Origin: Amphiscolops sp. MND2022
Lineage: Eukaryota
DNA: 64,000 nucleotides
Direction of reading: 5' to 3'
Assembly: GCA_964187785.1 (NCBI GenBank)
Contig: OZ076409.1
Span: 69,318,001-69,382,000, forward strand
In this document: positions 13,798 through 64,000 of the stretch, piece by piece
Layout: each line of letters begins with the position of its first letter
How positions within the stretch are numbered: the first letter of the stretch is position 1
Notes under the pieces: generated by a model
Database searches by the model: none
Told to the model about the DNA's origin: nothing
What the model saw: the letters and a program-made list of their open reading frames with translations, nothing else
Position numbers and translations under genes: made by a program

Positions 13798-13808
13798 AGA
13801 GAGAGGAG
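13798..13808 (+). promoter_or_regulatory. Polypurine tract
   Basis: AGAGAGAGGAG abutting the TG of the 3' LTR. Confidence 0.9.
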
Positions 13809-14016
13809 TGTGGTAGAGCACTTGTTGTACAGCTTCATAAAACAAAAGTGTGAAAATAATTAATTACACTATTTATTAACAACCTGTCGAAAATAGTAAA
13901 AGTGGCAAAAGAAAACAATCTGCCAATACAGACAGTTACGCCATTCAATACAGTTTCTCACACTTCATCTTCTTTCGTCTATCTAGTTCTTTAGCCAATT
14001 CAGCTAGACTATAACA
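13809..14016 (+). repeat. 3' LTR
   Basis: 205/208 identical to the 5' LTR by eye; followed by TSD AAGAG. Confidence 0.97.
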
Positions 14017-19391: not shown

Positions 19392-19944
19392 AGACTATTT
19401 TAAAATGTGAACATTGACAAACAAATTCTCAAGAAAACCACCTTTCAAACTTCTGTCTAAAAATCAGAAAACTCGAACTTTGGGAAGAAGTTTCCGTCGA
19501 ATTTTGGAAAGACATTTCCGTCGAACTTTTTAGAACAATAGTCACAGAGTGTCAAAAATGCCCAAGAGGAATAACTTTCTAGGCTCTTAACCGAAAACTG
19601 GAATGCGGATGTCTAGTCAAATAGAAAAAATAGAAAAAGTTGCAAAGCGACAAAAACCCTATTGGCCCTTTTTTGATCCTGTTGTGTTTTTTTTAATTAA
19701 AAGTGTGAAGTGTGAAGCCCTGAAGTGTGAAAAAATCAAAGGGAGATTTTCGAAACCTCTGGGTAGACTTTAGTTTTAGGGTTAACGCTGCTAAAATCTT
19801 AGACAAACTTTTTATTGCGAAAATTTGCACAGTGCTGAAATATTATATGAAGAGATGACGCTTTCGTCAAGTTAGACTAGGTAAATGTTTAAAAATTACA
19901 GCAATCAGTGGTTGCGAAGCGAAATCACGTACGTCTGCTTCCTG

Positions 19945-20494
19945 CCCTGGTTGGAACTGCTTGAACTATTAACATGTTTTTGTAGGTTACCAACCTAATT
20001 TTCCATGATTGTATAAAATTTTCAAAGAAACGTCCATGCAACAAAACTTCACTGATTCGATTTAATTTTATCAAGCTGCCTATAAGATGCATCCTAAATT
20101 TGGCGGCAATTTTGCGCCGGAAAGTTTTGCAGGTTTCATTAAGACACCGTTCTAATTTTCGAAGCAGCTGAGACCGTCATCAATTTTACCGCGCTTTCAA
20201 TGCAAATAAACTTCAGTCACATTATAAGTTTCAAAGTTACGTCATATTCAGCGTGCTATCTGACTAACGGTTATAACATAAAATACTTACATGAGAAACT
20301 TTGCGTGAAAACAAAGTGATCGCGGTGGTGAAGAAGTGGAAATGTTTTCAGTTTTAATGAAATAGTGGAAGCTGCATTGTAATCCTACAAAATGTTTCCA
20401 TGCAGGCTCCCGGAATTTTCCACGTTTTGTAAAAAAAAATTAGCCTGCATGTTTCCATTTAGCATGTAAAATTTTCAAGCAATCTCGACTAGGG
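19945..20494. mobile_element. MITE copy 1 (CCC...GGG, TSD TG)
   Basis: Imperfect TIRs ccctggttggaactgcttg / caagcaatctcgactaggg; TG on both flanks; similar along its length to the adjacent copy. Confidence 0.85.
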
Positions 20495-20502
20495 TGGCAC
20501 TA

Positions 20503-21055
20503 CCCTGGTTGGAACTGCTTGGACTTTTTACATGTTTTTGTACGTTACCAAGCTAAATTTCCATGATTTTATAAAATTCTTAAAGAAATGACCATGCATT
20601 AAATCTTTACTGATTCGATTTAATTTTATCAAGCTGCCTATAAAATGCATCTTAAATTTGGCGGCAATTTTGCGCCGCAAAATTTTGCAAGTTTCATAAA
20701 GACGCTGTTCTAATTTTGAAAGCAGCTGAGACCTTGATCAATTTTACCGCGCTTTCAATGCAAAGAAACTTCAGTCACACTATATGTTTCAAAGTAGCGT
20801 CATATTCAGCGTGCTATCTGACTAACGGTGATTACATAAGGACTTTACATGAGAAACTTACGCGTGAAAACAAAGTGATCGCTGCGGTCGGTGAAGAAGT
20901 GGAAATGTTTTGAGTTTTAATTCAAATAGTGAAGGCTGCATTGTGATCCTACAAAATGTTTCCATGCACGGTCCCGGAATTTTCCATGTTTAATAAAAAA
21001 TTTGCCTGCATGTTTCCATGCAGTATGTAAGAAGTTCAAGCAATCTCGACTAGGG
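20503..21055. mobile_element. MITE copy 2 (CCC...GGG, TSD TA)
   Basis: Same TIRs as copy 1; TA on both flanks. Confidence 0.85.
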
Positions 21056-21881
21056 TAATGAACACAAACAAACACATGCGTTACCTCCAGGCCAAAATGT
21101 ACTTTTCACCAGCATCTAGTAGTTTAAGGCAGAATCAAACTCATCAGGAATATCTTAACTTTGAATGACATCACTTTAAAAAGCATGTACGGCGCGGTGT
21201 GAGTCGTGCCTCAGTTATGCTCAAAATGTGCAAAATTCATCAAATAGTTAACGAAATTCTCAAAATGCAAACCTCTCACAATGCCACAAAACATTCGATA
21301 AAAACTTATTGGGCTTAGGAAAACTTCTTTCGAAACAGAAACTCAAAGCGAGAACCACCTTAGGGTTTAGAAAACTTGTCGCGAAATCTCAAAGAGTGTC
21401 GAAAAATCCACATTTAGCTTCATAACTCAAATAAAGTGTTTTCAATAAAATTAAGGACCGTTTCAATAATTTTGCCACTCTTCAAAACTTATCCGTTTTG
21501 AAGAATTTTTATCGTTACTTCGACCAAATTGAGAAAAAACCTCAAAATTATTATAAAAGTCGCGTTTCCGCTTCATCAAACGTCGATTAAAAGTCAGATT
21601 GAAAAAGATTAGCTCCAGCCTCCATCAACCAATAAAAGAGGGCAAGGTAACAGCAAAACTTTGGGAAATAACGAAGTGTTACAAATGTTTTTTTTCTCGC
21701 AAGAATAAACAATTTACAACAGACTTATCTAATAAGTACTTGGGCCATTGTATTCAGCTAAGCTCTATTCTTTTGAAATTACTACTGATACTTATTATCA
21801 ACGTATTATCACGCATATTTCGTTGCATCGTTGTCCTACAAGATATTTAGGGGTAGGTACTGAATGAGGTTCAACACTCAC

Positions 21882-45897: not shown

Positions 45898-46076
45898 TGT
45901 CGCGATTTTCGCTATTTATAGAGTTTGTTGAACACTCTCTAGACCTCAGGCTACTATTTTCCCGTGTAAAAATGTTCTAGAACGATTTTCCCATGTTTTC
46001 TGCGAATTTCCTACTTCGGCGTTCCATTGTAGCCCACTGGACCTTCGGTCCTTTAATGTGAAATCGGTCGACCTTG
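45898..46076 (-). repeat. Displaced ~180-bp fragment of the element's own gag
   Basis: Near-identical to 54323-54505 (gctatttatagagtttgttgaa...aatcggtcgaccttg). Confidence 0.93.
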
Positions 46077-46120
46077 ACGGTTTCACGCACTTTTCACTCT
46101 CTCTTCAGAGTGATTTTCAA

Positions 46121-46152
<32 letters not shown>

Positions 46153-46155
46153 TCG
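46077..46155 (-). rRNA. ~79-nt fragment of 28S (LSU) rRNA, not a functional gene
   Basis: Minus strand CGAGACCGATAGTGAACAAGTACCGTGAGGGAAAGTTGAAAATCACTCTGAAGAGAGAGTGAAAAGTGCGTGAAACCGT matches the conserved eukaryotic LSU segment between expansion segments D1 and D2. Confidence 0.92.
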
Positions 46156-47916
46156 CTGGACCAATGCCCCTACGCAGCTTATGGAATCCAAAGCCCCCCC
46201 GTTTTGAAGAGCTGTCTCTGAAGACCATAATGCATAAGAAGGGGTACAGTGTGTTCGGAAAAATAGACTTCTTCTCGGTTGTGCAATTTGTCATCGTGTG
46301 TCTGGGAGGCTGTCTAGATCAGGACTGGATGTTGGTGTCCCCTGAATTGTCGAAGGTTGGTTGGAGACTTTGTTCTTTGCATCTAGCTCCTAGGATTTTA
46401 GACGGAGCCCTTCTTTTGTTTTCAGGCAATTAGATCATGCCAATTGGACATCAATGGTCTACCAGTCCTCTGCCAAGAACTGTTGCGTCACAGGAGCAAA
46501 GTGGTTGCTTTCTTGTCGAAAAGCACCCCTACCCAAGAAGGCACAGGAGTCCGCAAACAAGTAAGAGTTCTCTGGCTCCTTAGACCTACGGTCCAATGCA
46601 GTACCTCAACTGAGTGTTTCTTTTCAGCCCCAGAGCTTAGAATGGTCTCTTGTTTACGACGACTTCTTTCCGAGTAGACTCGAGTTGTTCTACCGATTAG
46701 TGCGCGATTGTTAGTGTTACCATTCATAGTTTCGCCATATACTATTGGGTTCAAAGTTTTCACTCTTTCTTTTATCGTCACCAGCAGTTTCACCACCAAT
46801 CTCAAGCGGCGCCGTGATCGAGGCTTCCATGTGTATCGAGAGCTAGGTCAATAACTCTTCAAGCTGGGCAGACGTTGCGTCAGTTCCAGCAGCATTCCTG
46901 AAGAAAATGATTTTCCCGGGGTCTACAGTCTCGTTATGGCTGACACTAAGGCTCTGTCAGTAGCTGACTTCCTGTCCCGGTCCAAATTGAGCGAAAAACT
47001 AGCAACTGCATGCAAGCTGAAAGCGGAAGCCGAGATGAGTGAGAAGAAAAACGAAAAGCTGACTCTAGCTGAAGTTACAGAGAACATTAAAGCTGATTTT
47101 GGACGCACTGCTCGTAGTTATGTAGTCACCCTATTCGGCACTGCTCAGAAGCTCCAGAGATTCACCAGCGATATAGTGAGAGGACTGGGTTCTTTTGATT
47201 TGGACGTGATGTTGGTCGACCCAATATCTTTGGCGACCTTTTGTTTCAAGGAGTTGTTTACCAGTTTCCGTTTGCGAGGTGTCTTGCTGGCAGACGAAGA
47301 GACGATTTACTTCGAAGAGTATCTCTCATTTCTTGACGAACTCCGCAAACTTCACCCCAACATCTCCTAGCCAAAACTGCTTATTCCTGACGTTATTGAG
47401 TTTGTGTGTGGACAGGAATCCTACAGGTCTCGGTCTTATCTCATGAGGATTTTCAGACTCAGTTGTCTTTGTCTAGATGATCCTCGTGTCTCCTTTCCCC
47501 CTGTCAAGTTTGGGACAGTCCATACTGATGACCCAAAAAGTCCAATGTTCGATGTTGTTACACCATTGCAATCGTACCTCAGCAATGTTGCCCGCGGGGT
47601 AGAAGTTTTCACCTCAGAGTCTTCGATCTCCAAGTTTCTCGCTCTGGAACCGACTTTTGGGTCAACTGGGCTAAGGGACATATACAGTCCCTGGAGTGAC
47701 TTGGATAAGTTTGGATGGGCTGAGATCAATGACGTCATCAATAGTGTGACGCCCAAAGGCCCGAAGGTCTCCGCCGCAGAGGATGCCCCTAGTACCAGTA
47801 AAGCCACATCGTCTTTTATGGTGCCAAAGCCAGGGAAGAGGCGTAGTCACTTGATTTCAGATGAAGAGCTAAACAAGTCCGCTGAGCGTTTAAATGCTAG
47901 TTTAGATAAGTCTTAA
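46155..47916 (+). pseudogene. 3' part of the antisense hAT-transposase-like accessory gene (copy A, 5'-truncated)
   Basis: Duplicate of 60505-62263; phase-0 introns 46356-46425 (gttggt...tttcag) and 46561-46627 (gtaaga...tttcag) join the ORF fragments. Confidence 0.7.
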
Positions 47917-48102
47917 TTGTACCATATGTACAATTGTCATTTTAGTTTGTTGTACAGTGCTTCTAAAACTTTTCGTATAGACACTTTGGGATTATATTTA
48001 GTGTTCAGTTATTTACTGTATTCTTTGTCTTTTATTCAGTCAAGTCCCGCAAAGATATTATTCTGCAATTGTTTAATCGGGACAGTTAATTTACAATTCT
48101 GG

Positions 48103-51100
48103 CTAATATCTGTATTCGTCGGTGTAGTTGGGGGTTGGGTTAGGTCGTAGGTTAGATTTTCCTCCCCTGGGGCTTTCGTTTTCTACAATCATATCGTCTT
48201 CATCATCTAATACTTCGGGCACGATAGTATCACTCCCTCCTGACGATTGTTGATCGTCAATCCCATCATTTATGCGTTCTGAACGTGTTTTTTCAAGCGG
48301 AGCGAATTCATCATTTTCTTGTGGCCCGGTGGACCTAAGGTCCACGTCGGTGAAAATTTCGTCTGGCGCTCTGGCGTTATTTTCTTGAGGCCCGGTGGAC
48401 GTAACGTCCACGTCGGTTAAAATTTCGTCCGGCGCTCTGGTATTGTTTGCGTAATCATTAGAAGTGTCTAGCGCTTCTCGACATGTAGGAATTGCGGTTT
48501 CTTCAGTGGAATTGGGAAATTCACCAAATATGGTATTCCAAGTGATGACATATAGGTCATCTTGCGGAATATAAATTTCATTGTCCGGTTGCAAATTCCC
48601 TTCCGGTCTGGTGTCTTGTAGGACTGTGTTCGGTTCATAATTGCGTAGTCTGATGCGGTGTAAAATTTGCGTTTTGTTAGAATTCAGTTTTCTGACTATA
48701 TAGTTTTCATTTGGCAAGACTTTTTCTACAATATAGGGTCCTGTCCATCTGTATTCGCGAAATGGAATTTTCGATCTCTGGTGGTCGGCGATAGGTTGCA
48801 GTATAAAACAGTAATCGTTCTGTTTCAAGGGGGCCGCTTTGGCCTTCCGGTCGTAATATTCTTTGTACTTCAAATAGGATTGCATAATGTTTTTCTTTGT
48901 TGAATCAAGCAAAATTTGCGTCCGGCGCTGCAATTCATCTGCAAAGTCTGTAGTTGGTAGGACTTTCGGGTTTGGATTAAGGCCCAATTTGTGATCCAAT
49001 ATATTATACGGAATTCGTCCGTGAAATATTCTAGATGGTTCACAACCTAGGGTAGCGTGATAGGTCGTATTATAATTTAATACGGCTAAAGGCAAATATT
49101 TGTGCCACTGTCGCCTGTAGTCCCCTGAGGCCATCTTGAGGTTTGTTTTGAGACTGGCATGGGTACGTTCTAATTTGCCAATTGTTTGCGGGTGTTTTGT
49201 AGTTGCGCATTTTATGTGAATTCCGAGAATTTGAGCTACTTCGGCGACCAGTCTGGACGTAAAAGCCGTCCCTTTATCCGTGATCAAGGTAGTAGGCAAA
49301 TAGGTATGTTTAGTCATTATGTCTATAATAACCTTTGCCGTGTTTGTGGCCGAAGCGTCAGTAACTGGATATGCAAAAAGATTTCTTGAAAACAAATCCA
49401 TTGCAGTTATGATGTTTTCATAACCTCCGCTGGGGGGCAGGTTCGGTAACAAATCAATTTGAATTGCATCTTCCGGACCTAAGTCCCATTCAGGCAAGTT
49501 AAGCAATTCGGGAGTTATGGATGAGTTTGGGACTCTTTTATCTTTAATGCAAATTTCGCATCCTTGAACCCATTTTTTAACAATTTTTGCAATGCCAGGG
49601 TAGTAATATTTTTGGCGATTTTCGACGAGCATCTTTGGATATTCCAGGGTGTTTATTAGCTTTGCCGTGTAGGGATTCAAGTAGTTCATGTACCAGATGT
49701 TTAGGTAAAAGCACTTGATTGTATTTGACAGCTCCTGTTTCCTCAAAATACTGTCTAGTAATAATTTCATCCATAACGGACAGTCGGTCCATTTGGCGAC
49801 AGTAATGTTGGTAACGAGTATCTTGCAGGAGGATGGTCTCAGAATAACTTTCTTTCAGTATTTTTAGGCGCAATTGTTGCAAAATAACGTCGTTGTTTTG
49901 CTCCACTGCTATAGAGTTCGTGTAGGATAGTTTTTGAAGCGTGGAGAGTTTGTGATAGTCACTTTTGTGTGTAGTAAATTTTTCGAATGAAATATCAGGT
50001 AATTGATTTGATGGATGGTCCCTAGCGTCTTTTTTACGCTGTAAAATTTGTTCTTCCGTCTCGTCATCATCCTCTGTATAGAAGATTTGTTCCTCTTCCG
50101 AAACTCCGGCCGATTGGACATGTAGTTCGATCGGTGTTGTAGGAATATCTTCTCTGATTCTGAGGATTAATTTCTCTTTTGAAGAGATCTCCAGACGCGA
50201 CAGGTTATCAGCCGCTGTGTTGTTTTTTGCCGGGGATGTGTGCTATTGTGAAGTTGAACTGGATCACATAATCACAAGCATTCGATAATGTCGGCGGAAT
50301 AATTTTAGTTTGAAAAAATTGTGTGACGGACTTGTTGTCTGTGAGTATAATCACCGGTTTTGGGGTTCCCCAAAAGATATGTCCAAATTCCTTGAAGGCA
50401 AAGAAAATTGCTAAGAATTCCTTGGCATAGATGGACATTTTCAATTGGGTAGGACTAAAGGTCTTGGATCCATAAGCTACTGGTGCGAAAGTTTTCCTCG
50501 TAGAAGTGTACTTCTCGAGTGGATCGTCTTCGATGAGAACTGCGTACCCTGCAGCCGAAAAGCTGGCATCGGTCATAAGGGCTATTTGCTTGTTTGGTAA
50601 GGGTTGTTTGAGTGCCAGTTCGCAACATCGATCAAGAGCCTTGTTTATCTCGGTAAATTTTTCCAATAGGTCCGGTGTTACCAGGACTTTTTCATCTTTA
50701 GTGAGCAGTTTGAAAAACGGCGTTAGTTTTTCTGATAGTCTTGGGATGTAGTTTCGGTAGTAGTTCAAAAATCCCAAGTAACGCTGTAGTGCTTTCTTGG
50801 ATTTCGGGAATTTCGTATTTTCTAGGAAATTTTGGACCCGTGGTCTCTGCGGCTTCACTCCAGCAGGAGTGATGGTGCGTCCCAGAAAGTCGATTTCCGT
50901 TGCGCCAAAATGGCATTTATGCATCGTAAGCTTGAGACCAGCGTTTTGCATGCATTGGAATGTGGCCCTCAGGTTGTTGATGAGTTGTTCAGCATCGTTA
51001 GCAGCAATGCCAATATCATCAACATATTGGGCGCATTGGTCTGCTTTGATGACTTTGTCCAAGTATTCGCGCATGAAACTAGAGAAGGCCGATAGGGCTC

Positions 51101-53202
51101 TGCTGAGACCCTGTGCCAATCTTCTGTCCGCGAAAATTCTGCTGGCAAAATTGAAAGCAAGCATTTCAATGGACCGTTGGTCCGCCATTTGTAGGCAATG
51201 GTAAGCTTGCGAACAGTCCAATTTACAGAATAGCTTTTTCCCAGCCATGTGTTGGGCCGCGTCTGTAAGCGTACTTACTGGATGGTTATTGTTGATGTAA
51301 TCATCCGATATCAAGTTGTTTATTTTACGCAAGTCGACTAAAAGTCGCAGTTTGCCATTGGGTTTCTTTCGTGCAAAAATGGGGCTTGCGTACTTAGAGA
51401 ATGGGAGTGTTGTAATGATCCCATAGCGATGTATCGAGGCTAGTTCCACAAGGATGTCTTCTTTGAGGTTAATTGGGGTTGGTAAACTTTGACTGTAGGC
51501 CGGAGAGTGGTCTTTCGGGGTCAATTTGACCTTGAAGTCTTCGTTCATGCCGATATCAAATCGATGTCTTGCGAATATATCATGGAATTCAACAAGTAGG
51601 TCTTCTATGCGGGCTATTTCAGCAGGTTGAAGCATAGAGTCTGTCCAATCAAAATTGGATAGGAATTGACGTCTCGACTCAGAGTAGTCCTGAGGATTAC
51701 GTTTTTCCAATTCCTGGAGGTTGATCAGTTCTGACAAAATCCGTTTTTGAATCGGGGTATGATGCTGAGGGTCCCCAGGGTCCTCTGGTGTTGGAAACCA
51801 GTAGTTTTCCTTGAAGTCCTCAGGCTTAGTAGATTTGATCAAGCTGCTTGCATAGTAAGCAGCGTTTTCAGGATTGTCCCGCAAAAGGTGTGGTCATCGG
51901 GTCAATAGGTTTGACATATTTCATCTGTTCCGGTGTAAGGACAGTGAAATTAGCAACTTGTGTACCTCTTTTGAGGGTATGGGGACTGTCGGTAAAATTG
52001 TTCAGGTGAACGGATACTTGACCATTGGTCAATGTGACTAGAGCAGCGCAGAAAGCAATATCGCCATCATCCGTAAGGGTGTGGCTCGGTTGAAGGATCC
52101 CGGTAACTGTAGTATCCTCGTACAGTTGTGAAGCCATGAGGACCCAGTGTCGGTCACTAGGTGGGATGGTTACATCCTCTCTAATGCAAATGGGTTCCAT
52201 GAAATTTGTATATTTGTGAACTGCAGTTTTGAGCTGCATTGAGAAGAAAAGATAATTTAGGACGCCTTGTCGCATGTCCAGAATGGTGTTATTCCTTTGA
52301 AGGAAGGAAAGACCAATTAATGGACTGGTGAGTTTCTCCATCACTATAAAGATTTCATAGAAATCTATGTCGCCGACTTCAAATTTCAATTCGACGGTGC
52401 TTTTAGGATTTTCCAGCTGTTCGTTTGCAACCATTATTTGGAAGTTGGGAGCTGGACCCTCTTTAATAATAGACTGAGGGGCTAATAATCGGATTTTACG
52501 TAGATCAGCTTCAGGGATTGCGCTAGATAGAGCTCCCGTGTCTACAAGGCCATCTAGTGTTAGTTCGCCAAAATCCATTGGAAAGTAGAGCATTCGTTGT
52601 TTGTATTTGACGCCAAGATTGGTAGCCAGCGGCACGTAGTCCGGTTCCCCTGTTCTGGTGACCAGGGTGCTCACATAGCGTGCCGCAACGGCTGTGGCCA
52701 AGGAGACCTGTGGTCCCTCATGGTGAAAGTCATCACCGACATTGGAGTGAGTGGTTTGATGGACGGGCTGTGCGCCATGTTGCCATGTGTCAACTCGTGC
52801 TTTGGTAAGAACTGTATTTAGGGCTTGGTCAGTTTCAAAAGAATCTGGTTCTATATTCGAGTTCTGTTTGTTAAAATTGTGGTAGAAGTACAGATGATGT
52901 TGATTGTAGCAGTTAGCCTCCCAGTAGGGGTCAAAACCATAGTCGGGGTCAGGATAGTATGGGTTATAGTCATCAATGAGGGGTATAAGTCGTTAAGTAG
53001 TAGTATCAGTTTGTAGTCTGTTGGACATAGAGTCCAAAGTGGTAAGAAAATTAGGTGGAGTTTTCATCTGCTGGTGCCAGTCAGCTGATGAACTTTCTTT
53101 AAGAGCTGTATAATACTCAGTGTAATATATATTTGGAGGGTCTGATATTATGTACTGTCGTACACGGAGTTTTTCATGTATTTGGAGTCGCGGCAAATCT
53201 AG
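48103..53202 (-). pseudogene. pol: pol (PR, dUTPase-like linker, RT, RNase H, integrase with GPY), several frameshifts/stops
   Basis: LVDTGA; LRLLVDLR, KLDCSQAY, QYVDD; MTDAS; H...H/CEIC zinc finger; QIDL, ITDKG, GKLER; WTGPY. Confidence 0.95.
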
Positions 53203-54962
53203 TTTTTTGGATTCTTTAAGATGGACGTGGTTTGTGTATTTTTCGCGTCTTCTTGGCTGGTGGACTTATCGGTGGCCGTGGTGTCATCCAGTTTAAGGTT
53301 TTTGGGCTTGAGGTGGGCTCCAGCGCCTTTCCAACATCTTTCCGCCGGGTGGTTCGATTTGTCGCAAGTTGGACATTTTGGATATTCTTTCTTGGTATCC
53401 TGTCCGTCGTTGCGGCGTTGTTCCTCCTTTCTTTTAAGTTTGCGGCAATCGTCTTTGACATGTCCAGATTTCTTGCAATTGTTGCAAGTAATGTTTGGAT
53501 CAATGCCATAGGAAAGAAGGCCAGTTCCCGGTCGTGTTGCTGTAGGGGCAGTGGACATTGTTGGTACTGGAATGTCGTCCCCCTCCTCAAGTCCATTGAG
53601 CTCAAGTTCTCGTTCTAGATGGGTGACATTTTCCTCATAGGTGGCGTTTTCAAGTCTAGCCATATTGACGGAGCGTTTCATTTTTGGAGGCAACTTGGCA
53701 TAGATGAGACTATCGATCATGGCTTGGGCGTTCTCGCCAAACGCTTTTTCAGCTCCTTGGTTTAATTTTTGAAGGAAGTCGGGTAGTTTCATGGTGTTTG
53801 GATCAAACACCAATCTGTGCCATTTGTGTTTGGCGGTCGCCTGGGACTCAGGTTTGACGTATTTCCGACGAAATACAGCTAGAATGTCTTCCAATGTTTG
53901 CCTGTTTGCCGTATTGATGTTACGGAAAGTTTGTAGGGCATTTTTTCGCAACAGTGAATGAAAATGATTGATTTTCATTGTTTCGGTCATATCAGGTTGC
54001 ATTTTTATCATTGTGTGAAAGAGATCTTCAAAAAGTTCGAATTTCTCTGATTTGCCGTCGAAAGTCAGTGTAGTCGTGCTGACTGGGCGTACCATCAGTG
54101 TTTGTGCTGATGGACGGTTGTTCATGCCGACTAGTACTTCTGCAAGACGGTTAATGGGATCAGAAGAAATAGTTGGTGTTGTGGTCTCAGGGACCTGGGG
54201 AATTGTATCCTGAGACTCGTCATTGTTGGAATTTTGACGTTGCAGGGGATCTCGAGATAGCATGGGACGTCCAGTGAGAAACTCGGGAACCATATGTGGG
54301 GTAGGTTTGGCTCCTGTCACCATGTCGAGATTTTGTTTGCTATTTATAGAGTTTGTTGAACTCTCTCTAGACCTCAGTCTACTATTTTCCTGTGTAAAAC
54401 ATGTTCTAGAACGATTTTCCCATGTTTTCTGCGAATTTCCTACTTCGGCGTTCCATTGTAGCCCACTGGACCTTCGGTCCTTTAATGTGAAATCGGTCGA
54501 CCTTGGGCTAGGATGTGGCCCGTTGGACTCCCGGTCCACCATGGTGAAAATAGGTCTCCCCTGCATTTCTAGTGAATTTTGGATGGAAGGAAGCACTGTA
54601 TTTGTTATTGCAGCTGTAATTGCTTCCTTAATTTGGGAATTCACACCAGTTTTATTTTCATTGAGTTTTCTAGACATTTGATTGGAAATTTCCTCGCTTA
54701 TCAACCTAGAAGTCTCAATTGTGATTTCACTGTTTTCCCTGCTGTTGGTATTAAGTAAGGACCTAAAATCTTCTATAACATTTGAGCTTTGTTGTGGTCA
54801 GCTAGACCCTGAGTCCAAATTCACTTCATTTTCACTAACATTATTCTCTTCATCTTCTCTAGAGTAACTTCCAAGCATTATGTCAACATTTTCTACATCG
54901 GACAGCATGTCTAACTGTCTAGAACGACGTTCTTTAGCCTTTTGCTTTCACGTGGAAGGCAT
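53199..54962 (-). pseudogene. gag: gag with two CCHC knuckles; two in-frame stops near the 5' end
   Basis: ATG at 54962 is in frame with ORF 53199-54704; TFDGKSEKFELFE, CNNCKKSGHVKDDC, CPTCDKSNHPAERC. Confidence 0.9.
53202..53208 (-). promoter_or_regulatory. Putative -1 ribosomal frameshift heptamer A AAA AAC
   Basis: CCA AAA AAC TAG at the gag stop; the -1 frame continues as LDLPRLQIH into the pol-side ORF 52993-53196. Confidence 0.75.
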
Positions 54963-55140
54963 GAGAAGGGGATTTGAGTTTCACAGTCAATTGTAAATAT
55001 CAACTAACAAGATAATCCAAATCAACAAAGTATGTATCAGCAGAGTTTTAAACTCAAAGTTCAGTATCGTGACAATATTATATCGACTTGTTTGTATCAA
55101 GATTGTGAAAGTTTCTGTCCCAGCTCTCCAGTGTTCCCGC

Positions 55141-55148
55141 TATTTATA
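55141..55148 (-). promoter_or_regulatory. Candidate TATA box upstream of gag
   Basis: TATAAATA flanked by GC-rich bases, ~180 bp upstream of the gag ATG. Confidence 0.4.
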
Positions 55149-55460
55149 GTTTGGGTGGGGTTACACACAGAATTATGCGGGTCATGGTTCTAAAAATAGC
55201 AATAGATGGGGTTTTAGGTCAGTACTAGGGACATTACGTCACTATTTCATCATGTTTGTAAGGACAAAAATAGCATCAAAGAGAAGCGGCTAAGGGTTGT
55301 AGCTGGAGATTATGATGCCATATAAATATGCATGGAGGAATATTATTATGCCTGAATATGCTATTTACATGTTTATATTTCCAATAATAACACTTCATGT
55401 CATTAGAATAATCACAAACAGCGTGATTGGCAATTACGCCAAATCGGACGTAACGTCCAT

Positions 55461-55472
55461 GCGGCGTCACCA
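55461..55472 (-). promoter_or_regulatory. Candidate PBS (tRNA-Trp-like)
   Basis: Minus strand ...TATACA AT TGGTGACGCCGC; resembles the Trp PBS TGGTGACCCCGA and follows a CA + 2-nt spacer. Confidence 0.5.
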
Positions 55473-55474
55473 AT

Positions 55475-55956
55475 TGTATAGTTAGTTCGATTTGATTGGT
55501 TAATATAGCACTCGACGTTGCGTACAATCAGCCACAACAACAGTACATTTGAACACGTTTCCTTACTGCGCTTCAATTGCATTCTAATACATCATTCAAA
55601 TTGATCATTTTACCTTGCTAATTCCAATTCATTTGGTACATTACTATTTCAACAATAATCAACAGGTATATCAAGCACAAACTAACTATAATATTAAGCA
55701 ACGGTAAATTACATAAAGTAGAGTGTTTTGTGATTAGTTTTAACACAATTGTTTGATGAGGCCGTATCGACCTAAGGTCCTTTATGTTTTGGACGCAGTT
55801 CTTCTATATTTGCCTCAATTTGAGTGAGGCCGTCCGTACCATCGGTCCATTGTTGTCAAACCTTCTAAATAGGGAGTACTCCTGGCGGGGGGTTAGATAG
55901 ATCGTCTACTGAAGGGATTTGGTAGTAATTGCCGTCACAGGCGGCAGCCTGCGACA
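55475..55956 (-). repeat. Candidate single LTR shared by the two tandem units
   Basis: Bounded by the candidate PBS and a purine run AGGGGGAG|TGT at 55957-55964; TGT...ACA ends. No second copy in the window, so unverified. Confidence 0.3.
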
Positions 55957-56851
55957 CTCCCCCTGGGACTAGAATCACACTGCCGGCTTTCATTCCGGCT
56001 TGAAAAGCATTTCTCCTGCGAATCTTTTGAATGTAATTTTCCTCAGGGATGTGTGTTTTCTCTAAATATCCCAAAGTAATCTCTTCTTGAATAGCCGCGT
56101 AAGACTTACCACACACTGTACATCCTCCATATTGGATATAGTTGGGGGTTCCACAAAATCCGCTCGCACTAATTGTCATCCCGGAAATGTGGGGGTTTTT
56201 AATCCATTCACTTTCCTGACCTTGTTCTTCAGGGTATTCGCCATAATACTGTGCGACTGAAGGCCCTTGTTCCTCTAACGGTGGTGACAATGGGGAATAA
56301 GGTACTGGTTCCAATCCACTACACTGGGCAATCTGGTGCCGCGAGTCTCCCTCTTTATATGTCCGTTGGGGTGGGTTCCCAACAAACCATTCAATCAGGC
56401 TATCGGATGGATCCGTGGTTGACGCCACTGATCCGGGTTGTCCATATTGCGATTGAGTTAGGTCGTACTCGTTAGCATCAAATTCAGTCGTCATTGCGCG
56501 TCCTCCTGCTAGTTGTGGTGAGAACATCGGGTTTTCTCTATAGCACGCTATAATTTCAATATCACTGTCGCACCCATCGTCTTGTTGAGAGTCATCTGGT
56601 ATAGAAAGCACGTCCACTTCCATATCCTCGTCAGAAGAATTAAAAACTTCGCTCACTAGCGGTCGGATGAATTCTTCTACAATAAATTGTAGTGACATCT
56701 CAGCTAGATATCTTTCCAGAATAAGATTTTGGCAATTTTCAATTGTGTTGCTTGATCGTAGTAAGGATTTGAGTTGAATGATTTGCTCTAGCCCGGCAGA
56801 CCTCAGGTCCCCTTTCAATAAAATTGCGGGAAATTTTAAGCGGGGTAACAT
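55865..56851 (-). CDS. Orphan accessory ORF (acidic/Pro-rich, CxxC motif GCTVCGKSY)
   Basis: Uninterrupted 328-codon frame within the repeat unit, same strand as gag-pol; true start may be the later Met (MSLQF...). Confidence 0.7.
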   Translation of the reverse strand: MLPRLKFPAILLKGDLRSAGLEQIIQLKSLLRSSNTIENCQNLILERYLAEMSLQFIVEEFIRPLVSEVFNSSDEDMEVDVLSIPDDSQQDDGCDSDIEIIACYRENPMFSPQLAGGRAMTTEFDANEYDLTQSQYGQPGSVASTTDPSDSLIEWFVGNPPQRTYKEGDSRHQIAQCSGLEPVPYSPLSPPLEEQGPSVAQYYGEYPEEQGQESEWIKNPHISGMTISASGFCGTPNYIQYGGCTVCGKSYAAIQEEITLGYLEKTHIPEENYIQKIRRRNAFQAGMKAGSVILVPGGVSQAAACDGNYYQIPSVDDLSNPPPGVLPI

Positions 56852-57821
56852 AACCTGGAGTTTCCTCAGATTTTCCTCGGATTCCTTTTAAGTAAAGTTA
56901 TAAGTTTTCACAAATAGTAGCAGAAGTCAGCTGAAAAGCTTTTCAATTGGTCCTTGAAGGCCTATCATCGTGTTTGTCTAACAACTAGTGAGTTGTTAAT
57001 TGCCAGTAAGAGTGTTTACCAATGTAAAAGACAGGTAAAGAATAATTCGATCAAAGACCGACTGTCCGGCAGGCCTCATTCAAGATAAGACTAATGACGT
57101 TTCATTAACTAATAATTCGCATGAATGAATAACTAAATATGGTAAAGGAGATGAAAACTGTGAAGAACGTAACTGAGTTGTACCTTTCAATTGCGAAATA
57201 AAGTGAAATTTCATGGCTTTCACTGGCAGGTTCAAGACATGAGAAATGTGATAATGAAATGAAATGATGGTGAATGGTAACTAATTGTTAATGTACTAGC
57301 CACGACATTTGTAATTTAGCGTCTCATAAAAGTCTCAATAGTATTAGTTAGACTGTTAGTCTAGTTGGGTAAAAGAGCGTAGACAGGTGAGTATTGTATT
57401 GTGAATGATATACGAATGGAAGTATAAGTGCTTGAGGTACAGTAATCCCAACCGTCGTCATTTCTCTAACTACAAGTTACTTTCACTGGTTACTTCATCG
57501 ATTCGTTCAAGGCGCTTCCCTCATCATCGGAGTGAACAGAACACGAGGACCTACAGTATCCCTGGCCTCAACCAATTGTTTATCCAGATTCTTTAACCTG
57601 AGCAGGTTACAAACGCATCCCCTTCGACAGCTATTCCAAGCAAGAAATCTGCTTCCCCACTATGGAGATAGCATCAGGTTGGTTCTTTAAATGTGTCTAA
57701 GTTGAGCTTGATCAGGGTTCAACTTTTGACTAGATTCACTTCCTCCATTTTAAAATGTTTTCACGTTGAAACATTACTTCGAACATAACTTACTTCCGGA
57801 AGATTGTCAAAATGCGGCAAA

Positions 57822-60800
57822 ATGGATTCATATTCAGGAAGTACACCGCGTAAATTTATCTCTTTCTATTTAGAACAAGAGACTAACGGCCAACAAACTC
57901 AGAAATTAGCTGAGGTTGAAGAGACTGACAGGAACGAATTTTCAATCCCTGATACTGCTCATGATTTTCCAACCAGCAGTCAACAATCGTCGAGTGAAAT
58001 CAAAGACAACGAGGTCAGACAATTACAGGCTCCCGACCCCTCGCACAGCAACAGTCGAGTAATAGCAGAGGGCAAGGACATTGAGCTCTGCCCGTCTCAG
58101 ACATCTGAACTTCCCAAGAAGGACCAGCCAATGACTGAAGCCATGGACACTGAGTGCAACCAGCCTCAAACATCAGAACTTCCCAAGAAGGACCAGCCAA
58201 TGATTTTAGCCATGGACACTGAGTCCAGTCAGCCTCAGATTCATGAAGCCCCTTCCAGTAGCCAGCATGTCCAAGCAGAAGTTGTGCAAATTGGGATTAG
58301 CCAAGATCAGACTCCAACAGAGGTTTCGCCTTTGTCTAAGCTGCTTTGTTCTGACGGAAGCGAATCAAATGAGAGCTGCCAGGCATTTTTCACTCGCAAA
58401 ATGCAAGAACTTGGTGCTGAGACCAACGAGGAGGGAACCCTAGCAGACCATGATGCCTCCCAGAAGGAGAGTGAAAGTGAGTTAATAACTGTCTTTCCTG
58501 GCCAAGAGCAAAAGGAGGGACCAGACCGACAGTTTCATCAGGTTCCTGCTGTAGCATTCTTAGAAACTGTTACAGCGTACTCGGCTTCAAGCAATTCCTC
58601 TGCCATTGGGAATTCTAAGAAAAGAGCCAAATTAGTACGACCTGCTACTCCCTTGCGCCCAACTTTGCAGGACGATATCCAAAGTGAGCTTTCCATAGCT
58701 TCTTCCACAACATCTATTGGTCTCCATCATGGCTTTGGTGAATCAGAGCAACCGATCCGAATGGGTAGCAGTTCTGATTATGGGCTTGAGACCGATGCTG
58801 AGTCATCTAATGCAGGTGGTTCTACCATGGCTGTTGCCCTAACTTCCGGGAGATACAATCCCTTGATCGAAGTCGACAAAGCCTCCAGTCAACCAGCAAG
58901 TTTACCTACTGCTCCAACTGGTAAACCTGAGCCGCTAAAAGTCAGTAGCCGAGCTCTATTGAAAGAGTATTTTGCTAAAACTGAACCGGTTGAGTTGCTT
59001 CGAGGTCACTCTACCATAGCCTTGACTGAAGATCAGATATCTAGCGTACTGAGGGTCGTAGCCGATGAGACTGCCAGGGCTTCTTACGACATGCTCGAGA
59101 ATCTGGTATACCGCGCCAGCAGGCTTAGCTTAAACACCTCGGTACCAGGCAGGAGAGTCTCCAAGAAGTCCAACGTACGTAGCCTTTCGCAGGGATCTGA
59201 TCAAGGCGAATCCGAAACTGAAGCGGGAAGTGACACTAGTGGTGGTATCCGTAGTGATGACGACTTCGGGAGTATTGGCTACCCTTATGAGCACTCCGAA
59301 ACTGAAATAATTGGCAGACCACCTACTGCACAGCTCATTCCTGGGTGTGGCTCTAATGACCAAGCGTCCCCTGACTTAGAGTTCAGCGTCAATAGTCCAG
59401 GATCTCAGACCCTTGCAGCGCTACAAAGAGAAGCCTTGCAGGATCAGAGTTCACGTCGGGGCAAGCCCAGCAACCGACGCATTCCCGCATCGAGAGGACG
59501 TACTAGGAGGCCGATTACTCGATCCTGTAAGATCATGAAGGAGGCGTTTTTTAAAGGTATGGAGTGGACGAAGACTTTTGTGTCAGGGCCAGTCGATCCG
59601 CGATGGAACCCTTACAAATTTTTTTGCCAAATTTGCAAGGCAAACATATCAATATAAGGAAAGGGAGCCCGAGAAGTCTTGCGACACCACTCAACCGAAA
59701 AGCACTTGAGGAAAGACCAAAGGTGGAGGTTCGAGCATCTATCCAAGGTAGTCCCAGTTACCCGCAAAGTTGTGCATCAAGTCAGGGGTAAAGACGGCAA
59801 ACTCCTCACACCTTACCAGCTGGAGTTAGAATACCCAAAGTTCAAGGATGTACCGTTGGTGGATATCGGCAAGAAGCTACCATTTTATGACGAGTTCATG
59901 GCGGGTACTGATTACATGGCATCTTCTTCGGGCGACCGGGCAAAAACTCAGATTTCCATTCTGTGCCGATTTCTCACCCATTATGGGGATATTGATGTGC
60001 TCAAAGTATTCTGGAGCGACGTGGGTGTGATTGTGAACCACCAGGCACTGTTCACAGACTTCGATTGGAGCAGGGAAAGACTTTCAGTTAGTATTTTTAC
60101 TTTACTCAGACGGGTACATTGTTAGAGTATTGTAGTGGACCTAAGGTTCTTTCAGCCTCATGCTACGCGAGGTCGCCTTACTAGTTAAATTCTGACATAA
60201 AAGGCAAGATTGTGTTATAGGTCATCTTCCATCACCTATTCCTTGAGATGATGAATGACATTGGAAGCCATGTCGTCGCTGCCTCTGAGTATTCATTGGA
60301 ATTCGCTCAAGAAGGAGTTTTCCTGTTGGTATTTATCCGATATTGGCCTGATGACCAAATGTGTAGGGTCCTCTTGAAAAGGACCGGACGTCTCCTCGGC
60401 CTCACTCAAGCTGCGGTTAGGCTTGTTTCCAACGTCATGGGCATATTCTCAACGAAGCCCCACTTAGTCAGTTGTACTGGAACAACGCACCGAACTATCG
60501 TCTTGCTGGACCAATGCCCCTACGCAGCTTATGGAATCCAAAGTCCCCCCGTTTTGAAGAGCTGTCTCTGAAGACCATAATGCATAAGAAGGGGTACAGT
60601 GTGTTCGGAAAAATAGACTTCTTCTCAGTTGTGCAATTTGTCATCGTGTGTCTGGGAGGCTGTCTAGATCAGGACTGGATGTTGGTGTCCCCCGAATTGT
60701 CGAAGGTTGGTTTGAGACTTTGTTCTTTGCATCTAGCTCCTAGGATTTTAGACGGAGCCCTTCTTTTGTTTTCAAGCAATTAGAACATGCCAATTGGACA

Positions 60801-62263
60801 TCAATGGTCTACCAGTCCTCTGCCAAGAACTGTTGCGTCACTGGAGCAAAGTAGTTGCTTTCTTGTCGAAAAGCACCCCTACCCAAGAAGGCACAGGAGT
60901 CCGCAAACAAGTAAGAGTTCTCTGGCTCCTTAGACCTACGGTCCAATGCACTATCTCAACTGAGTGTTTCTTTTCAGCCCCAGAGCTTAGAATGGTCTCT
61001 TGTTTACGACGACTTCTTTCCGAGTAGACTCGAGTTGTTCTACCGATTAGTGCGCGATTGTTAGTGTTGCCATTCATAGTTTCGCCATATACTATTGGGT
61101 TCAAAGTTTTCACTCTTTCTTTTATAGTCACCAGCAGTTTCACCACCAATCTCAAGCGGCGCCGTGATCGAGGCTTCCATGTGTATCGAGAGCTAGGTCA
61201 ATATCTCTTCAAGCTGGGCAGACGTTGCGTCAGTTCCAGCAGCATTCCTGAAGAAAATGATTTTCCCGGGGTCTACAGTCTCGTTATGGCTGACACTAAG
61301 GCTCTGTCAGTAGCTGACTTCCTGTCCCGGTCCAAATTGAGCAAAAAACTAGCAACTGCATGCAAGCTGAAAGCGGAAGCCGAGATGAGTGAGAAGAAAA
61401 ACGAAAAGCTGACTCTAGCTGAAGTTACAGAGAACATTAAAGCTGATTTTGGACGCACTGCCCGTAGTTATGTAGTCACCCTATTCACCACTGCTCAGAA
61501 GCTCCAGAGATTCACCAGCGATATAGTGAGAGGACTGGGTTCTTTTGATTTGGACGTGATGTTGGTCGACCCAATATCTTTGGCGACCATTTGTTTCAAG
61601 GAGTTGTTTACCAGTTTCCGTTTGCGAGGTGTCTTGCTGGCAGACGAAGAAACGATTTACTTCGAAGAGTATCTCTCATTTCTTGACGAACTCCGCAAAC
61701 TTCACCCCAACATCTCCTAGCCAAAACTGCTTATTTCTGACGTTATTGAGTTTGTGTGGACAGGAATCCTACAGGTCTCGGTCTTATCTCATGAGGATTT
61801 TCAGACTCAGTTGTCTTTGTCTAGATGATCCTCGCGTCTCCTTTCCCCCTGTCAAGTTTGGGACAGTCCATACTGATGACCCAAAAAGTCCAATGTTCGA
61901 TGTTGTTACACCATTGCAATCGTACCTCAGCAATGTTGCCCGCGGGTAGAAGTTTTCACCTCAGAGTCTTCGATCTCCAAGTTTCTCACTCTGGAACCGA
62001 CTTTTGGGTCAACTGGGCTAAGGGACATTTACAGTCCCTGGAGTGACTTGGATAAGTTTGGATGGGCTGAGATCAATGACGTCATCAATAGTGTGACGCC
62101 CAAAGGCCCGAAGGTCTCCGCCGCAGAGGATGCCCCTAGTACCAGTAAAGCCTCATCGTCTTTTATGGTGCCAAAGCCAGGGAAGAGGCGTAGTCACTTG
62201 ATTTCAGATGAAGAGCTAAACAAGTCCGCTGAGCGTTTAAATGCTAGTTTAGATAAGTCTTAA
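57822..62263 (+). pseudogene. Antisense, intron-containing accessory gene: disordered N-terminus, BED-like zinc finger, hAT-transposase-like remainder (copy B)
   Basis: ~610-codon open frame running into FFCQICKANISI*GKGAREVLRHHSTEKH; phase-0 intron 60087-60220 (gttagt...ctgac...ttatag) joins RERLS to VIFHHLF; YSLEFAQEG...LVFIRYW resembles hAT FSLxxDE...LxIFIRY; further introns ~60706-60775 and 60911-60977. Confidence 0.7.
58097..58240 (+). repeat. 69-bp in-frame tandem repeat (QTSELPKKDQPM..AMDTE..QP)
   Basis: Two copies visible in DNA and protein. Confidence 0.85.
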
Positions 62264-62449
62264 TTGTACCATATGTACAATTGTCATTTTAGTTTGTTGT
62301 ACAGTGCTTCAAAAACTTTTCGTATAGGCACTTTGGGATTCTATTTAGTGTTCAGTTATTTACTGTATTCTTTGTCTTTTATTCAGTCAAGTCCCGCAAA
62401 GATATCATTCTGCAATTGTTTAATCGGGACAGTTAATTTACAATTCTGG

Positions 62450-64000
62450 CTAATATCTGTATTTGTCGGTGAAGTTGGGGGTGGGGTTAGGTCGTAGGTT
62501 ATATTTTCCTCCCCTGGGGCTTTCGTTTTCTACAATCATATCGTCTTCATCATCTAATACTTCGGGCACGATAGTATCACTCCCTCCTGACGATTGTTGA
62601 TAATCAATCCCATCATTTATGCGTTCTGAACGTGTTTTTTCAAGCGGAGCGAATTCATCATTTTCGTGTGGCCCGGTGGACCTAAGGTCCACGTCGGTGA
62701 AAATTTCGTCTGGCGCTCTGGCGTCATTTTCTTGAGGCCCGGTGGACGTAACGTCCACGTCGGTGGAAATTTCGTCCAGCGCTCTGGTATTGTTTGCGTT
62801 ATCATTAGAAGTGTCTTGCGCTTCTCGACATGTAGGAATTGCGGTTTCTCCAGTGGAATTTGGAAATTCACCAAAATTGGTATCCCAAGTGATTACATAT
62901 AGGTCATCTTGCGGAATAATAATTTCATCGTCCGGTTGCAAACTCCCTTCCGGTCTGGTGTCCTGTAGGACTGTGTTCGGTTCATATTTGCGTAGTCTGA
63001 TGCGGTGTAAAATTTGCGTTTTGTTTGAATTCAGTTTTCTGACTATATTGTTTTCATTTGGCAAGACTTTTTCTACAATATAGGGTCCTGTCCATCTGTA
63101 TTCGCGAAATGGAATTTTCGATCCCTGGTGGTCGGCGATAGGTTGCAGTATAAAACAGTAGTCGTTCTGTTTCAAGGGGGCCGCTTTGGCCTTCCGGTCG
63201 TAATTTTCTTTGTACTTCAAATAGGATTGCATAATGTTTTTCTTTGTTGAATCAAGCAAAATTTGCGTCCGGCGCTGAAATTCATCTGCAAAGTCTGTAG
63301 TTGGTAGGACTTTCGGGTTTGGATTAAGGCCCAACTTGTGATCCAATATATTATACGGAATTCGTCCGTGAAATATTCTAGATGGTTCACAACCTAGGGT
63401 AGCGTGATAGGTCGTATTATAATTTAATACGGCTAAAGGCAAATATTTGTGCCACTGTCGCCTGTAGTCCCCTGAGGCCATCTTGAGGTTTGTTTTGAGA
63501 CTGGCATGGGTACGTTCTAATTTGCCAATTGTTTGCGGGTGTTTTGTAGTTGCGCATTTTATGTGAATTCCGAGAGTTTGAGCTACTTCGGCGACCAGTC
63601 TGGACGTAAAAGCCGTCCCTTTATCCGTGATCAAGGTAGTAGGCAAATAGGTATGTTTGGTCATTATGTCTATAATAACCTTTGCCGTGTTTGTGGCCGA
63701 AGCGTCAGTAACTGGATATGCAAAAAGATATCTTGAAAACACATCCATTGCAGTTATGATGTTTTCATAACCTCCGCTGGGGAGCAGGTTCGGTAACAAA
63801 TCAATTTGCATTCATCTTCCGGACCTAAGTCCCATTCAGGCAAGTTAAGCAATTCGGGAGTTATAGATGAGTTTGGGACTCTTTTATCTTTAATGCAAAT
63901 TTCGCATCCTTGAACCCATTTTTTAACAAGTTTTGCGATGCCAGGGTAGTAATATTTTTGGCGAATTTCGACGAGCATCTTGGATTTTCCAGGGTGTTTT
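62450..64000 (-). pseudogene. pol: Integrase end of pol, second tandem copy (partial)
   Basis: Near-identical to 48103-49654; frameshift near 63812. Confidence 0.95.

Follow-up and report, generated by a model that had tools for sequence, protein, structure and literature searches.

How does a Ty3/Gypsy retrotransposon come to carry, antisense to its own genes, a spliced gene that resembles a DNA transposase, and what might this gene do for the element? The question is raised by a 64,000-nucleotide stretch of the genome of Amphiscolops sp. MND2022 (GCA_964187785.1, contig OZ076409.1), hereafter the window, for which an earlier note had claimed a plus-strand gene of ~4.4 kb at 57822-62263 that runs convergent with pol. 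We indeed confirmed such a gene between pol and the 3' LTR of the element, convergent with an integrase frame that ends at 62450 on the minus strand. The host element shows the LTR hallmarks of Ty3/Gypsy, i.e., direct LTRs with TG...CA ends, PBS, PPT and a short target duplication, and the order gag, PR-RT-RH-INT was found in copy A and also checked for copy B and relatives. It is ~16 kb long with LTRs of 1.63 kb and target duplications of 5 bp, the latter in 11 of 11 tested whole elements; among three distant-clade elements, the target duplication was resolved in one. The 14.35-kb repeat unit described before corresponds to the LTR plus internal region of this element, and the label "giant" does not hold since ~16 kb falls under the 20-kb bar for such elements (PMC6431247). 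Copies A and B form a single ~24-kb composite with one common LTR and one 5-bp target duplication around it, which sits just left of 45898; the 5' LTR of copy B lies ~6.1 kb beyond the window end (Table 1). A second accessory frame carries a C-x2-C motif and has no Pfam match.

Table 1. Features of the composite element and of its antisense gene, with positions in the window.
Feature	Position	Strand	Remarks
Composite left end	45898..46142		LTR piece 45898-46076, ~66-bp LSU rRNA fragment, then copy A
Copy A gag-PR-(dUTPase-like)-RT-RH-INT	46143..54322	-	
Copy A, 3' portion of antisense gene	46143-47916	+	
Common LTR	54323..55956	-	3' LTR of copy B = 5' LTR of copy A
Common LTR flanks	PPT just above 55956; PBS just below 54323	-	
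Second accessory frame	55865..56887	-	340 aa; sense to pol; kept in distant clades
Exon 1	57822..60086	+	conserved N-terminal peptide, long low-complexity region
Exon 1, later parts	~58945-59135 (helical block)	+	block conserved, then zinc finger and post-finger helical domain
Finger, C-x2-C...H-x4-H (BED/C2H2-like)	59560..59730	+	best-conserved portion of the antisense gene
Intron 1	60087..60220	+	phase 0
Exon 2	60221..60705	+	RNase H-like core
Intron 2	60706..60775	+	phase 0; acceptor non-canonical in copy B
Exon 3	60776..60910	+	
Intron 3	60911..60977	+	phase 0; one palindrome inside, at 60933
Exon 4	60978..61059	+	
Intron 4	61060..61127	+	phase 1
Exon 5	61128..62263	+	all-helical; aligns weakly to Hermes 345-609
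Integrase end of copy B pol	62450..64000	-	
GAC-N5-GTC, all sites	54323..64000		18 sites, 7 of them in the common LTR (54469 to 55769)
GAC-N5-GTC, in LTR	54469, 54526, 54805, 54901, 55230, 55447, 55769		
GAC-N5-GTC, beyond LTR	56799, 57056, 57351, 58215, 59358, 60382, 60933, 61221, 61316, 62679, 62745		

The gene consists of five exons and four introns. Three of these introns had been named before and lie exactly where they were placed, all in phase 0, and the corresponding intron ends in copy A (46356-46425 and 46561-46627) are canonical as claimed, but the fourth had been missed; together, the exons hold about 1,367 codons, slightly short of the ~1,400 aa proposed. The N-terminus is long as described, and its Ser/Glu richness is just moderate (24% S+E over 560 aa). 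Across diverged copies, GT-AG borders are kept in 36 of 36 cases for intron 1, in 34 of 36 for intron 2 (with a canonical acceptor in 14 of 15 copies other than B) and in 30 of 33 scorable copies each for introns 3 and 4. Intron 3 is precisely absent from the remaining three copies, which are distant, and intron 4 is precisely absent from two and non-canonical in one; intron 1 is missing from an external homologue (P0018) that is otherwise collinear with the antisense protein, such that introns 1, 3 and 4 are each precisely missing from some relatives. We note that intron 4, the hAT-like C-terminal half of the protein and the element-wide palindrome described below all go beyond the earlier note.

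The copy B gene is broken by stops at 59655 and 61718 and by frameshifts near 60545, 61755 and 61945, in line with the few lesions reported before, and at six places in total if its intron-2 acceptor is counted. This damage could point to a neutral passenger or to an independent hAT transposon nested in this particular Gypsy copy, yet the stop at 59655 is private to copy B (0 of 36 other copies) and neither the place nor the orientation of the gene changes across 55 of 56 sampled copies, with a truncated copy as the exception. In detail, the gene is convergent with integrase in 20/20 and 15/16 copies sampled gene-first, present in 20 of 20 copies sampled integrase-first (17 with all exons), and still traceable as remains in three neighbouring Gypsy copies with an RT just 67-70% identical. 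No inverted repeats of at least 10 bp were found between 56887-57830 and 62256-62460, and the duplications flanking whole elements are of 5 bp. With no TIRs around the gene and its fixation across the clade, a nested hAT was rejected. A median pS of 0.80 against a pN of 0.28 (903 pairs of gene copies) and a dN/dS of 0.10 in 10 unsaturated pairs further argue against a passenger and show that the gene evolves under purifying selection, so that we regard this pair of explanations as having practically no chance. The claim of a spliced antisense gene as a fixed part of this Gypsy element is thus borne out, and the gene also has homologues outside the Amphiscolops genome.

The proposed hAT/BED ancestry found partial support. 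The finger and the YSLEF...IRYW and VSCTG blocks are present as described, and structure predictions for two natural open frames (alignment A5), which do not reach into exon 3 or the last part of exon 2, back an RNase H-like core behind the finger, with a pattern of three strands, helix, strand and helix in exon 2 (pLDDT 72-91 over 441-540) and best structural matches that are mostly RNase H-like. Residues 134-262 of the Hermes transposase (8edg) align to 424-551 of this model (Z 5.9, rmsd 5.4, 120 aligned), the longest alignment among the 50 matches listed, and Hermes 345-609 aligns to 1-292 of the exon 4+5 model (Z 5.1, rmsd 7.0, 191 aligned), at rank 2 of 48,161. Both alignments are collinear with the antisense protein, though both Z values are below 8 and level with unrelated folds, and the exon 4+5 match lies below the bar for helical folds. 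Among language-model atlas neighbours, with scores below 0.9 for all named families, those named for exon 2 are all hAT-type RNase-like families (0.82-0.87), and for the finger the neighbours named are zf-C2H2_12 or zf-BED (0.88-0.89).

Sequence profiles were less forthcoming. Pfam scans of the antisense protein gave no hAT-family match above noise, a weak zf-BED match in 2 of 63 members (best E 0.0099) and no match for exon 4+5 in 87 members; no hAT match came from PDB sequence searches, and no Foldseek match to the models reached E <= 0.001. HHalign against hAT proteins of the same genome, with shallow profiles, was negative in 8 of 8 comparisons, and DUF4371 had no match in the own genome nor in the controls, which makes this profile uninformative. 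L108 had a single other match in the genome, longer homologues of exon 4+5 (700-2000 aa) were not found, which counts as weak evidence, and a JGI metagenome scan yielded 81 pattern matches of which none was confirmed.

The lack of a hAT profile match, together with generic RNase H-like folds that score at least as high as Hermes, leaves some room for a different RNase H-like source, either another DDE transposase with a helical insertion or an already domesticated host gene of the ZBED/FAM200 type, and a captured host gene would be in line with the four introns and the dead site. Against this, Hermes is alone among the structures listed in aligning to the two halves of the protein in the right order, and its alignments are the longest; hAT-derived families are the atlas neighbours of two distinct parts of the protein, and a domesticated ZBED-type donor would itself be hAT-derived. 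We therefore consider a source other than a hAT transposon rather unlikely and, based on the weak but collinear Hermes matches and the language-model leads, a hAT origin of the antisense gene probable.

Whatever its source, the protein is in all likelihood devoid of cleavage activity, as predicted from an apparently lost DDE triad. With a register set by eye against hAT ORFs, the position of the first hAT Asp is occupied by A/V/E/I, as the earlier note had anticipated, and that of the second by S/T in 44 of 45 sequences; an ER-x-[FW]S motif looked for in exon 5 is absent. A Glu that precedes the hAT Asp position by two residues is conserved in 42 of 44 sequences, and the alignment ranges of HIV integrase on the predicted model could place this residue at the catalytic site, so that one carboxylate may survive.

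A possible target of this protein is found in the element itself. The palindrome GAC-N5-GTC occurs about twice per kb over the whole element, with 36 sites in copy B as opposed to none over 13.9 kb of flanking DNA downstream and none in the window's other Gypsy element, and in 29 of 36 copies no palindrome ranks above it. Inside pol there are 11-15 sites compared to ~2 after synonymous resampling (5 of 5 tested), i.e., 5-7 times more than the synonymous-codon expectation. In seven distant copies its place is taken by a GCC-N5-CGG / GCC-N6-GGC motif (10-15 sites, 2-2.6 expected) that was confirmed on held-out parts. Both motifs are present in L073 and in the LTRs of L071 and L080, neither was found in three RT-distant copies, one sub-family has no sites across 3 kb of the antisense gene, and one flank holds 15 GCC-type sites. 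Regular spacing of the sites was not significant (6 copies, P 0.05-0.39), and the CpG o/e of the elements gave no sign of a methylation decay to escape from. The motif and the finger covary at the level of clades only, of which there are about two, and a residue-level code that links finger to motif found no support; L076, which combines a distant-type finger with 13 GAC sites, breaks a simple code of this kind.

The same L076 leaves space for another reader of the palindromes, which could be the 340-aa protein, a host factor or, if the sites act as short RNA stem-loops, Gag, while the antisense protein would work elsewhere, e.g., in tethering integrase to its targets or in handling genomic RNA. 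Along these lines, the 340-aa frame is likewise conserved to distant clades and has a C-x2-C, the motif class tracks both RT clade and accessory clade, and pairing at inner positions of the palindrome slightly exceeds expectation (123 versus 102) with an excess of G.T over A.C. Yet no more than three base pairs are fixed, sequence rather than pairing is conserved, and outer positions pair about as often as expected by chance (104 versus 92), all of which is more easily reconciled with a DNA site than with a hairpin. A general host site is disfavored since neither the flanks nor the other Gypsy of the window have the motif, and among GAC-clade copies the finger hardly varies whereas the rest of the antisense protein diverges. 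We consider it unlikely, though well worth keeping in mind, that the palindromes have a different reader.

If the antisense protein does bind these sites, as predicted, it might also repress its own element and control copy number rather than activate it. The anatomy and motif evidence would look identical, and the LTR and its surroundings are rich in sites (one copy has 17 in 3.4 kb). Conversely, copies of the clade are young and very numerous: all scored integrase matches (150 of 150) are 93-100% identical, with many of them in open gag-pol frames of ~1,700 codons, and LTR pairs of the distant clade are 99.5-99.8% identical. Moreover, sites at synonymous positions within pol suit a coating of the entire element, and we thus find self-repression quite improbable.

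We favor, with a probability of about 0.5, that the antisense protein is a dead hAT derivative that binds the palindromes typical of its clade across its own element and thereby keeps this element active. The gene would be driven by a promoter of its own between 56890 and 57822. Its introns would persist because the genomic RNA reads the gene backwards and carries them in reverse through retrotransposition, and their rare exact losses would arise by copying of spliced antisense RNA; both persistence and exact loss rest on established retroelement logic. There is an even chance that two fingers read the two GAC half-sites by analogy to the BED domains of Hermes, which bind a quasi-palindrome cooperatively (PMC10368747). 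More tentatively, the long N-terminus might recruit chromatin or transcription cofactors, and an element coated in this way would be expressed or shielded from silencing. It is similarly conceivable, if somewhat doubtful, that an LTR retrotransposon clade domesticated an entire DNA transposase to serve it as a sequence-specific chromatin factor with VANC-like anti-silencing function and has the binding site of this factor written throughout the element. The site would have been placed even via synonymous codons of pol, motif and protein would diverge together between sub-clades, and a class I element would have evolved self-recognition independently and from a class II enzyme.

The domestication of transposases is usually described as capture by the host. 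Here, the captor is likely another mobile element, and the captured gene has been kept with its introns under purifying selection in an abundant and young clade. The dispersed palindrome offers a precise and testable target for the class of antisense accessory ORFs and, if the predicted binding is true, a retrotransposon marks its own copies and shapes the synonymous codons of pol by a code at the DNA level. In practice, genes of this kind would be missed or misannotated as zinc-finger genes of the host.

Compared to known systems, the protein resembles Hermes and other hAT proteins as well as ZBED/FAM200/GTF2IRD2, in the descriptions available to us, by the same order of an N-terminal zinc finger, a helical region, an RNase H-like core and a helical C-terminal half, the last as a weak match. 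Unlike hAT elements, the antisense gene appears to lack an intact DDE triad and has neither TIRs nor an 8-bp duplication; unlike hAT and ZBED proteins, its product has an N-terminal extension of ~570 aa and a sequence too diverged for Pfam; and unlike a free hAT or a host-fixed ZBED gene, it is carried by an LTR retrotransposon. VANC of the Mutator-like VANDAL elements is an anti-silencing protein for which binding and demethylation were shown, with non-palindromic motifs mainly in non-coding tandem repeats (excerpts of PMC5735166). What the Amphiscolops element shares with it is an element-encoded accessory protein along with a short motif specific to the family, which is densely present in the element (introns included) and varies from one family to another, but the motif of the Amphiscolops element is a spaced palindrome across retrotransposon coding DNA, its protein is unrelated and the binding is predicted. 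Similarly, PMD-A is a domain family common to plant retrotransposons, DNA transposons and host chromatin regulators (excerpts of bioRxiv 10.1101/2024.09.27.615353); the spread of the domain family across retrotransposons, DNA transposons and host proteins is alike, though the domain is a different one, PMD-A is not transposase-derived, and Pfam scans found no PMD in the antisense protein.

The closest architecture is that of plant Retand/Tat Gypsy elements (Grande, RIRE2) with their antisense TRP28 (Transposase_28, PF04195) ORFs, which in the sections of PMC11963269 at hand occupy a long region between pol and 3' LTR in nearly all copies, are predicted to bind DNA, and have a proposed regulatory role with a function stated as unknown. 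The view that no standard Gypsy architecture looks like this one must thus be tempered, since Retand elements typically carry an antisense ORF in the region from pol to 3' LTR, and such an ORF is present in most copies of both. Pfam scans found no TRP28 in the Amphiscolops gene, which differs by its four introns (the word "intron" is absent from the main text of PMC11963269), ~1,370 codons and an architecture of finger, RNase H-like and helical parts; Retand is described with tandem arrays, whereas the Amphiscolops palindrome is dispersed inside pol. Within titles and abstract openings, no hAT-derived or spliced antisense gene in Gypsy was found, though an earlier description may exist in subscription journals, Repbase or supplements. 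As judged from these sources, antisense accessory ORFs as such are already known from Retand, and it is the spliced, hAT-like version and its palindrome that are new.

The antisense gene between pol and the 3' LTR of copy B is a real feature of its Gypsy element, with five exons and ca. 1,367 codons. We indeed recovered the three introns named in the earlier note at their positions and detected a fourth, so that the count of three was too low. Across 36 diverged copies picked by the finger exon, intron 1 (77 to 153 nt) is GT-AG in all and intron 2 in 34, while introns 3 and 4 are each GT-AG in 30 of 33 copies (scorable ones for intron 3), intron 3 being precisely absent in three and intron 4 precisely absent in two and non-canonical in one. 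P0018, a homologue from outside this genome, runs collinear with the gene over the site of intron 1. Identity to three diverged copies is 71% to 83% in exons and 36% to 71% in introns. Over 903 copy pairs, median pS is 0.80 and median pN 0.28; dN/dS across copies, proposed earlier as a check on the gene, is 0.10 from 10 unsaturated pairs (maximum 0.205), with higher and noisier values of 0.07 to 0.39 by single short exon, and exon 5 entered this test with its first 110 codons only. The window's own gene copy is broken at six places, including a stop found in none of the 36 other copies. The first ca. 15 residues and a helical block further inside are kept even where finger identity of homologues is 42% to 48%, amid low-complexity sequence that otherwise cannot be aligned; both are candidates for cofactor binding.

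The finger exon has at least 150 scored matches in the genome, with 72% to 100% identity among the matches listed. A convergent integrase lies within 10 kb in 35 of 36 copies selected by the gene (L073 is truncated), and, on the question raised earlier of whether the gene always sits beside this pol, all 20 copies taken down a list of at least 150 integrase matches have it in antisense orientation, 17 of them with all exons. Gene remains also occur in three chance neighbours with 67% to 70% identical RT, and the LTR pairs of three distant-clade copies are 99.5% to 99.8% identical. That the gene is an independent hAT element nested in the retrotransposon has a negligible probability, as no inverted repeat of at least 10 bp flanks it. 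Among 1.84 billion representative sequences, 363 proteins matched at E <= 0.001, and the 10 looked up were unnamed ENA proteins. One of these 10, P0015, reaches no more than 57% identity in this genome, so that other species likely have the family too. Within the main clade, the RT tree conflicts with that of the accessory gene (e.g., for L057 and L060), suggesting module exchange. Four copies (L057, L058, L059, and L060) pair near-identical RT with different accessory-gene lineages, which suggests frequent recombination between sub-families that have the palindrome in common.

The host element is ca. 16 kb long with LTRs of 1.63 kb, as judged against 14 other copies in this eukaryotic assembly of 1.07 Gb, and a Pfam domain scan found gag, protease, RT, RNase H, and integrase in Gypsy order together with a weak dUTPase-like match (E 0.0088). 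All 11 copies with ends tested have 5-bp target duplications, and since a single one bounds the whole composite of copies A and B, these were likely inserted as one unit. A ca. 66-bp large-subunit rRNA piece (Rfam score under the gathering cut-off; top model bacterial LSU) bridges an LTR piece and the truncated copy A, which suggests a template switch onto rRNA in reverse transcription. The same LTR breakpoint (equivalent to ca. 54505–54507) in two independent internally deleted copies, the window's and c6 (L025), hints at a template-switch hotspot or an RNA 5' end. The gag frame starts within the LTR and crosses the primer-binding site, and its LTR-encoded part shows 70% protein-level conservation in another sub-family. 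On the same strand as pol, a second accessory frame (340 aa) extends into the 3' LTR and has a C-x2-C motif; it has no Pfam match, and pieces 29% to 43% identical were found in distant clades. Two further copies (c7 and c9; L030 and L036) adjoin long arrays of a ca. 47-bp satellite.

Features of the window
Feature	Position	Strand	Remark
Perfect DNA palindrome	2916–3273		358 bp
Compact separate Gypsy	8692–14016		LTRs ~211 bp (98.6% identical); no accessory gene or GAC-N5-GTC palindrome
Tandem duplication	19942–21056		~555 bp, 88% identity
Composite of copies A and B	45898 to ~6.1 kb beyond window end
LTR piece of deleted copy	45898–46076
rRNA piece	46077–46142	-
gag to integrase frames	48103–54797	-
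LTR	54323–55956		common to copies A and B
gag frame across LTR	54323–54797	-
Second accessory frame	55865–56887	-
Accessory gene	57822–62263	+
N-terminal residues	57822–57870
Internal helical block	58945–59135
Stop	59655
Intron 4	61060–61127

In profile searches, Pfam gave only weak zinc-finger matches, zf-BED in 2 of 63 members, and nothing relevant on exon 4+5 in 87 members, and HHalign found no significant match between the accessory protein and the genome's own hAT ORFs. Several hAT families here (L101–L114) have long open transposase frames in which the catalytic motifs are canonical, but the accessory gene matched none of these families. The AlphaFold model of P0018 has an RNase H-like core and mostly RNase H-like structural matches (Z up to 7.1), with the hAT transposase Hermes only at rank 16 in a wide search, yet with the longest alignment (Hermes 134–262 to model 424–551; a weak Z 5.9, rmsd 5.4, 120 residues). 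For the helical exon 4+5 model, Hermes comes 2nd of 48,161 structures (345–609 to 1–292; likewise weak, Z 5.1, rmsd 7.0, 191 residues). Because these two weak matches keep order and spacing, the hAT ancestry claimed earlier is probable despite the missing profile matches, and protein-atlas neighbours point to hAT too (named families score <0.9); a non-hAT origin, compatible with the negative profile searches and a question apart from the protein's role, seems doubtful. In a register set by eye against this genome's hAT ORFs, the first-Asp position is A/V/E/I, in agreement with the proposed loss of this catalytic residue, and the second is S/T in 44 of 45; the ER motif looked for in exon 5 is absent. 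The protein is thus predicted with good confidence to be catalytically dead. A Glu two residues ahead of the first-Asp position, conserved in 42 of 44, may be a shifted carboxylate, which the alignment to HIV integrase and the catalytic numbering of that enzyme could place at the active site.

Copies of the main clade are dotted with GAC-N5-GTC. There are 18 sites in 54323–64000, where 2.5 are expected and no more than 7 came up in any of 200 simulations, and 18 more in the remainder of copy B, with 0 in 13.9 kb of downstream flank, 0 in the window's other Gypsy, and 5 in window positions 1–45897. Over 200 kb of 20 copies we counted 408 sites versus 26 to 87 for other spacers, numbers that are not independent because these copies are related. 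GAC-N5-GTC ranks first among palindromes in 29 of 36 copies. In all 5 copies tested, pol has 11 to 15 sites where synonymous resampling gives ca. 2, with a smaller excess in the accessory gene (3–7 versus 1–2.5). The other seven copies, a distant sub-clade, carry GCC-N5-CGG (10–15 versus 2–2.6 expected), a motif picked post hoc and then checked on held-out LTR and gag parts, where GCC-N6-GGC reaches 24 versus 2.2 (LTRs counted twice). L076 and L073 show mixed features, contrary to a clean motif code, and three RT-distant copies have no motif. The flank of one distant-clade copy (L116:3133–7000) has 15 GCC-type sites, partly accounted for by likeness to a related LTR over ca. 290 bp only. Outside the three fixed bases, pairing hardly differs from chance, which speaks for a DNA site rather than an RNA hairpin.

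With a probability of roughly 0.5, the antisense gene would encode a DNA-binding factor, a dead transposase, that coats the element carrying it via the dispersed palindromes and supports the activity of that element, a reading adopted because Hermes BED domains and VANC proteins offer precedents. Binding of the palindromes by another reader appears unlikely, and self-repression by the protein more unlikely still. In Hermes, the BED domains cooperate in binding a quasi-palindrome, with a helix placed in its major groove (PMC10368747), and VANC proteins lift silencing and recognise motifs that are specific to a family and dense within the elements encoding these proteins (PMC5735166); VANC-like self-recognition or anti-silencing can be put forward here only tentatively. 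Extra ORFs downstream of pol have been reviewed (PMC6431247), and PMD domains were found in retrotransposons (bioRxiv 10.1101/2024.09.27.615353). The accessible part of PMC13547354 describes no such gene, and the literature searched, outside Repbase and closed journals, listed no Gypsy clade with a hAT-like antisense gene that is spliced or with a palindrome spread over the whole element. The earlier remark that no standard Gypsy architecture is like this one needs tempering as to placement: plant Retand elements generally have antisense ORFs, of unknown function, in the same interval between pol and the 3' LTR as here (PMC11963269).
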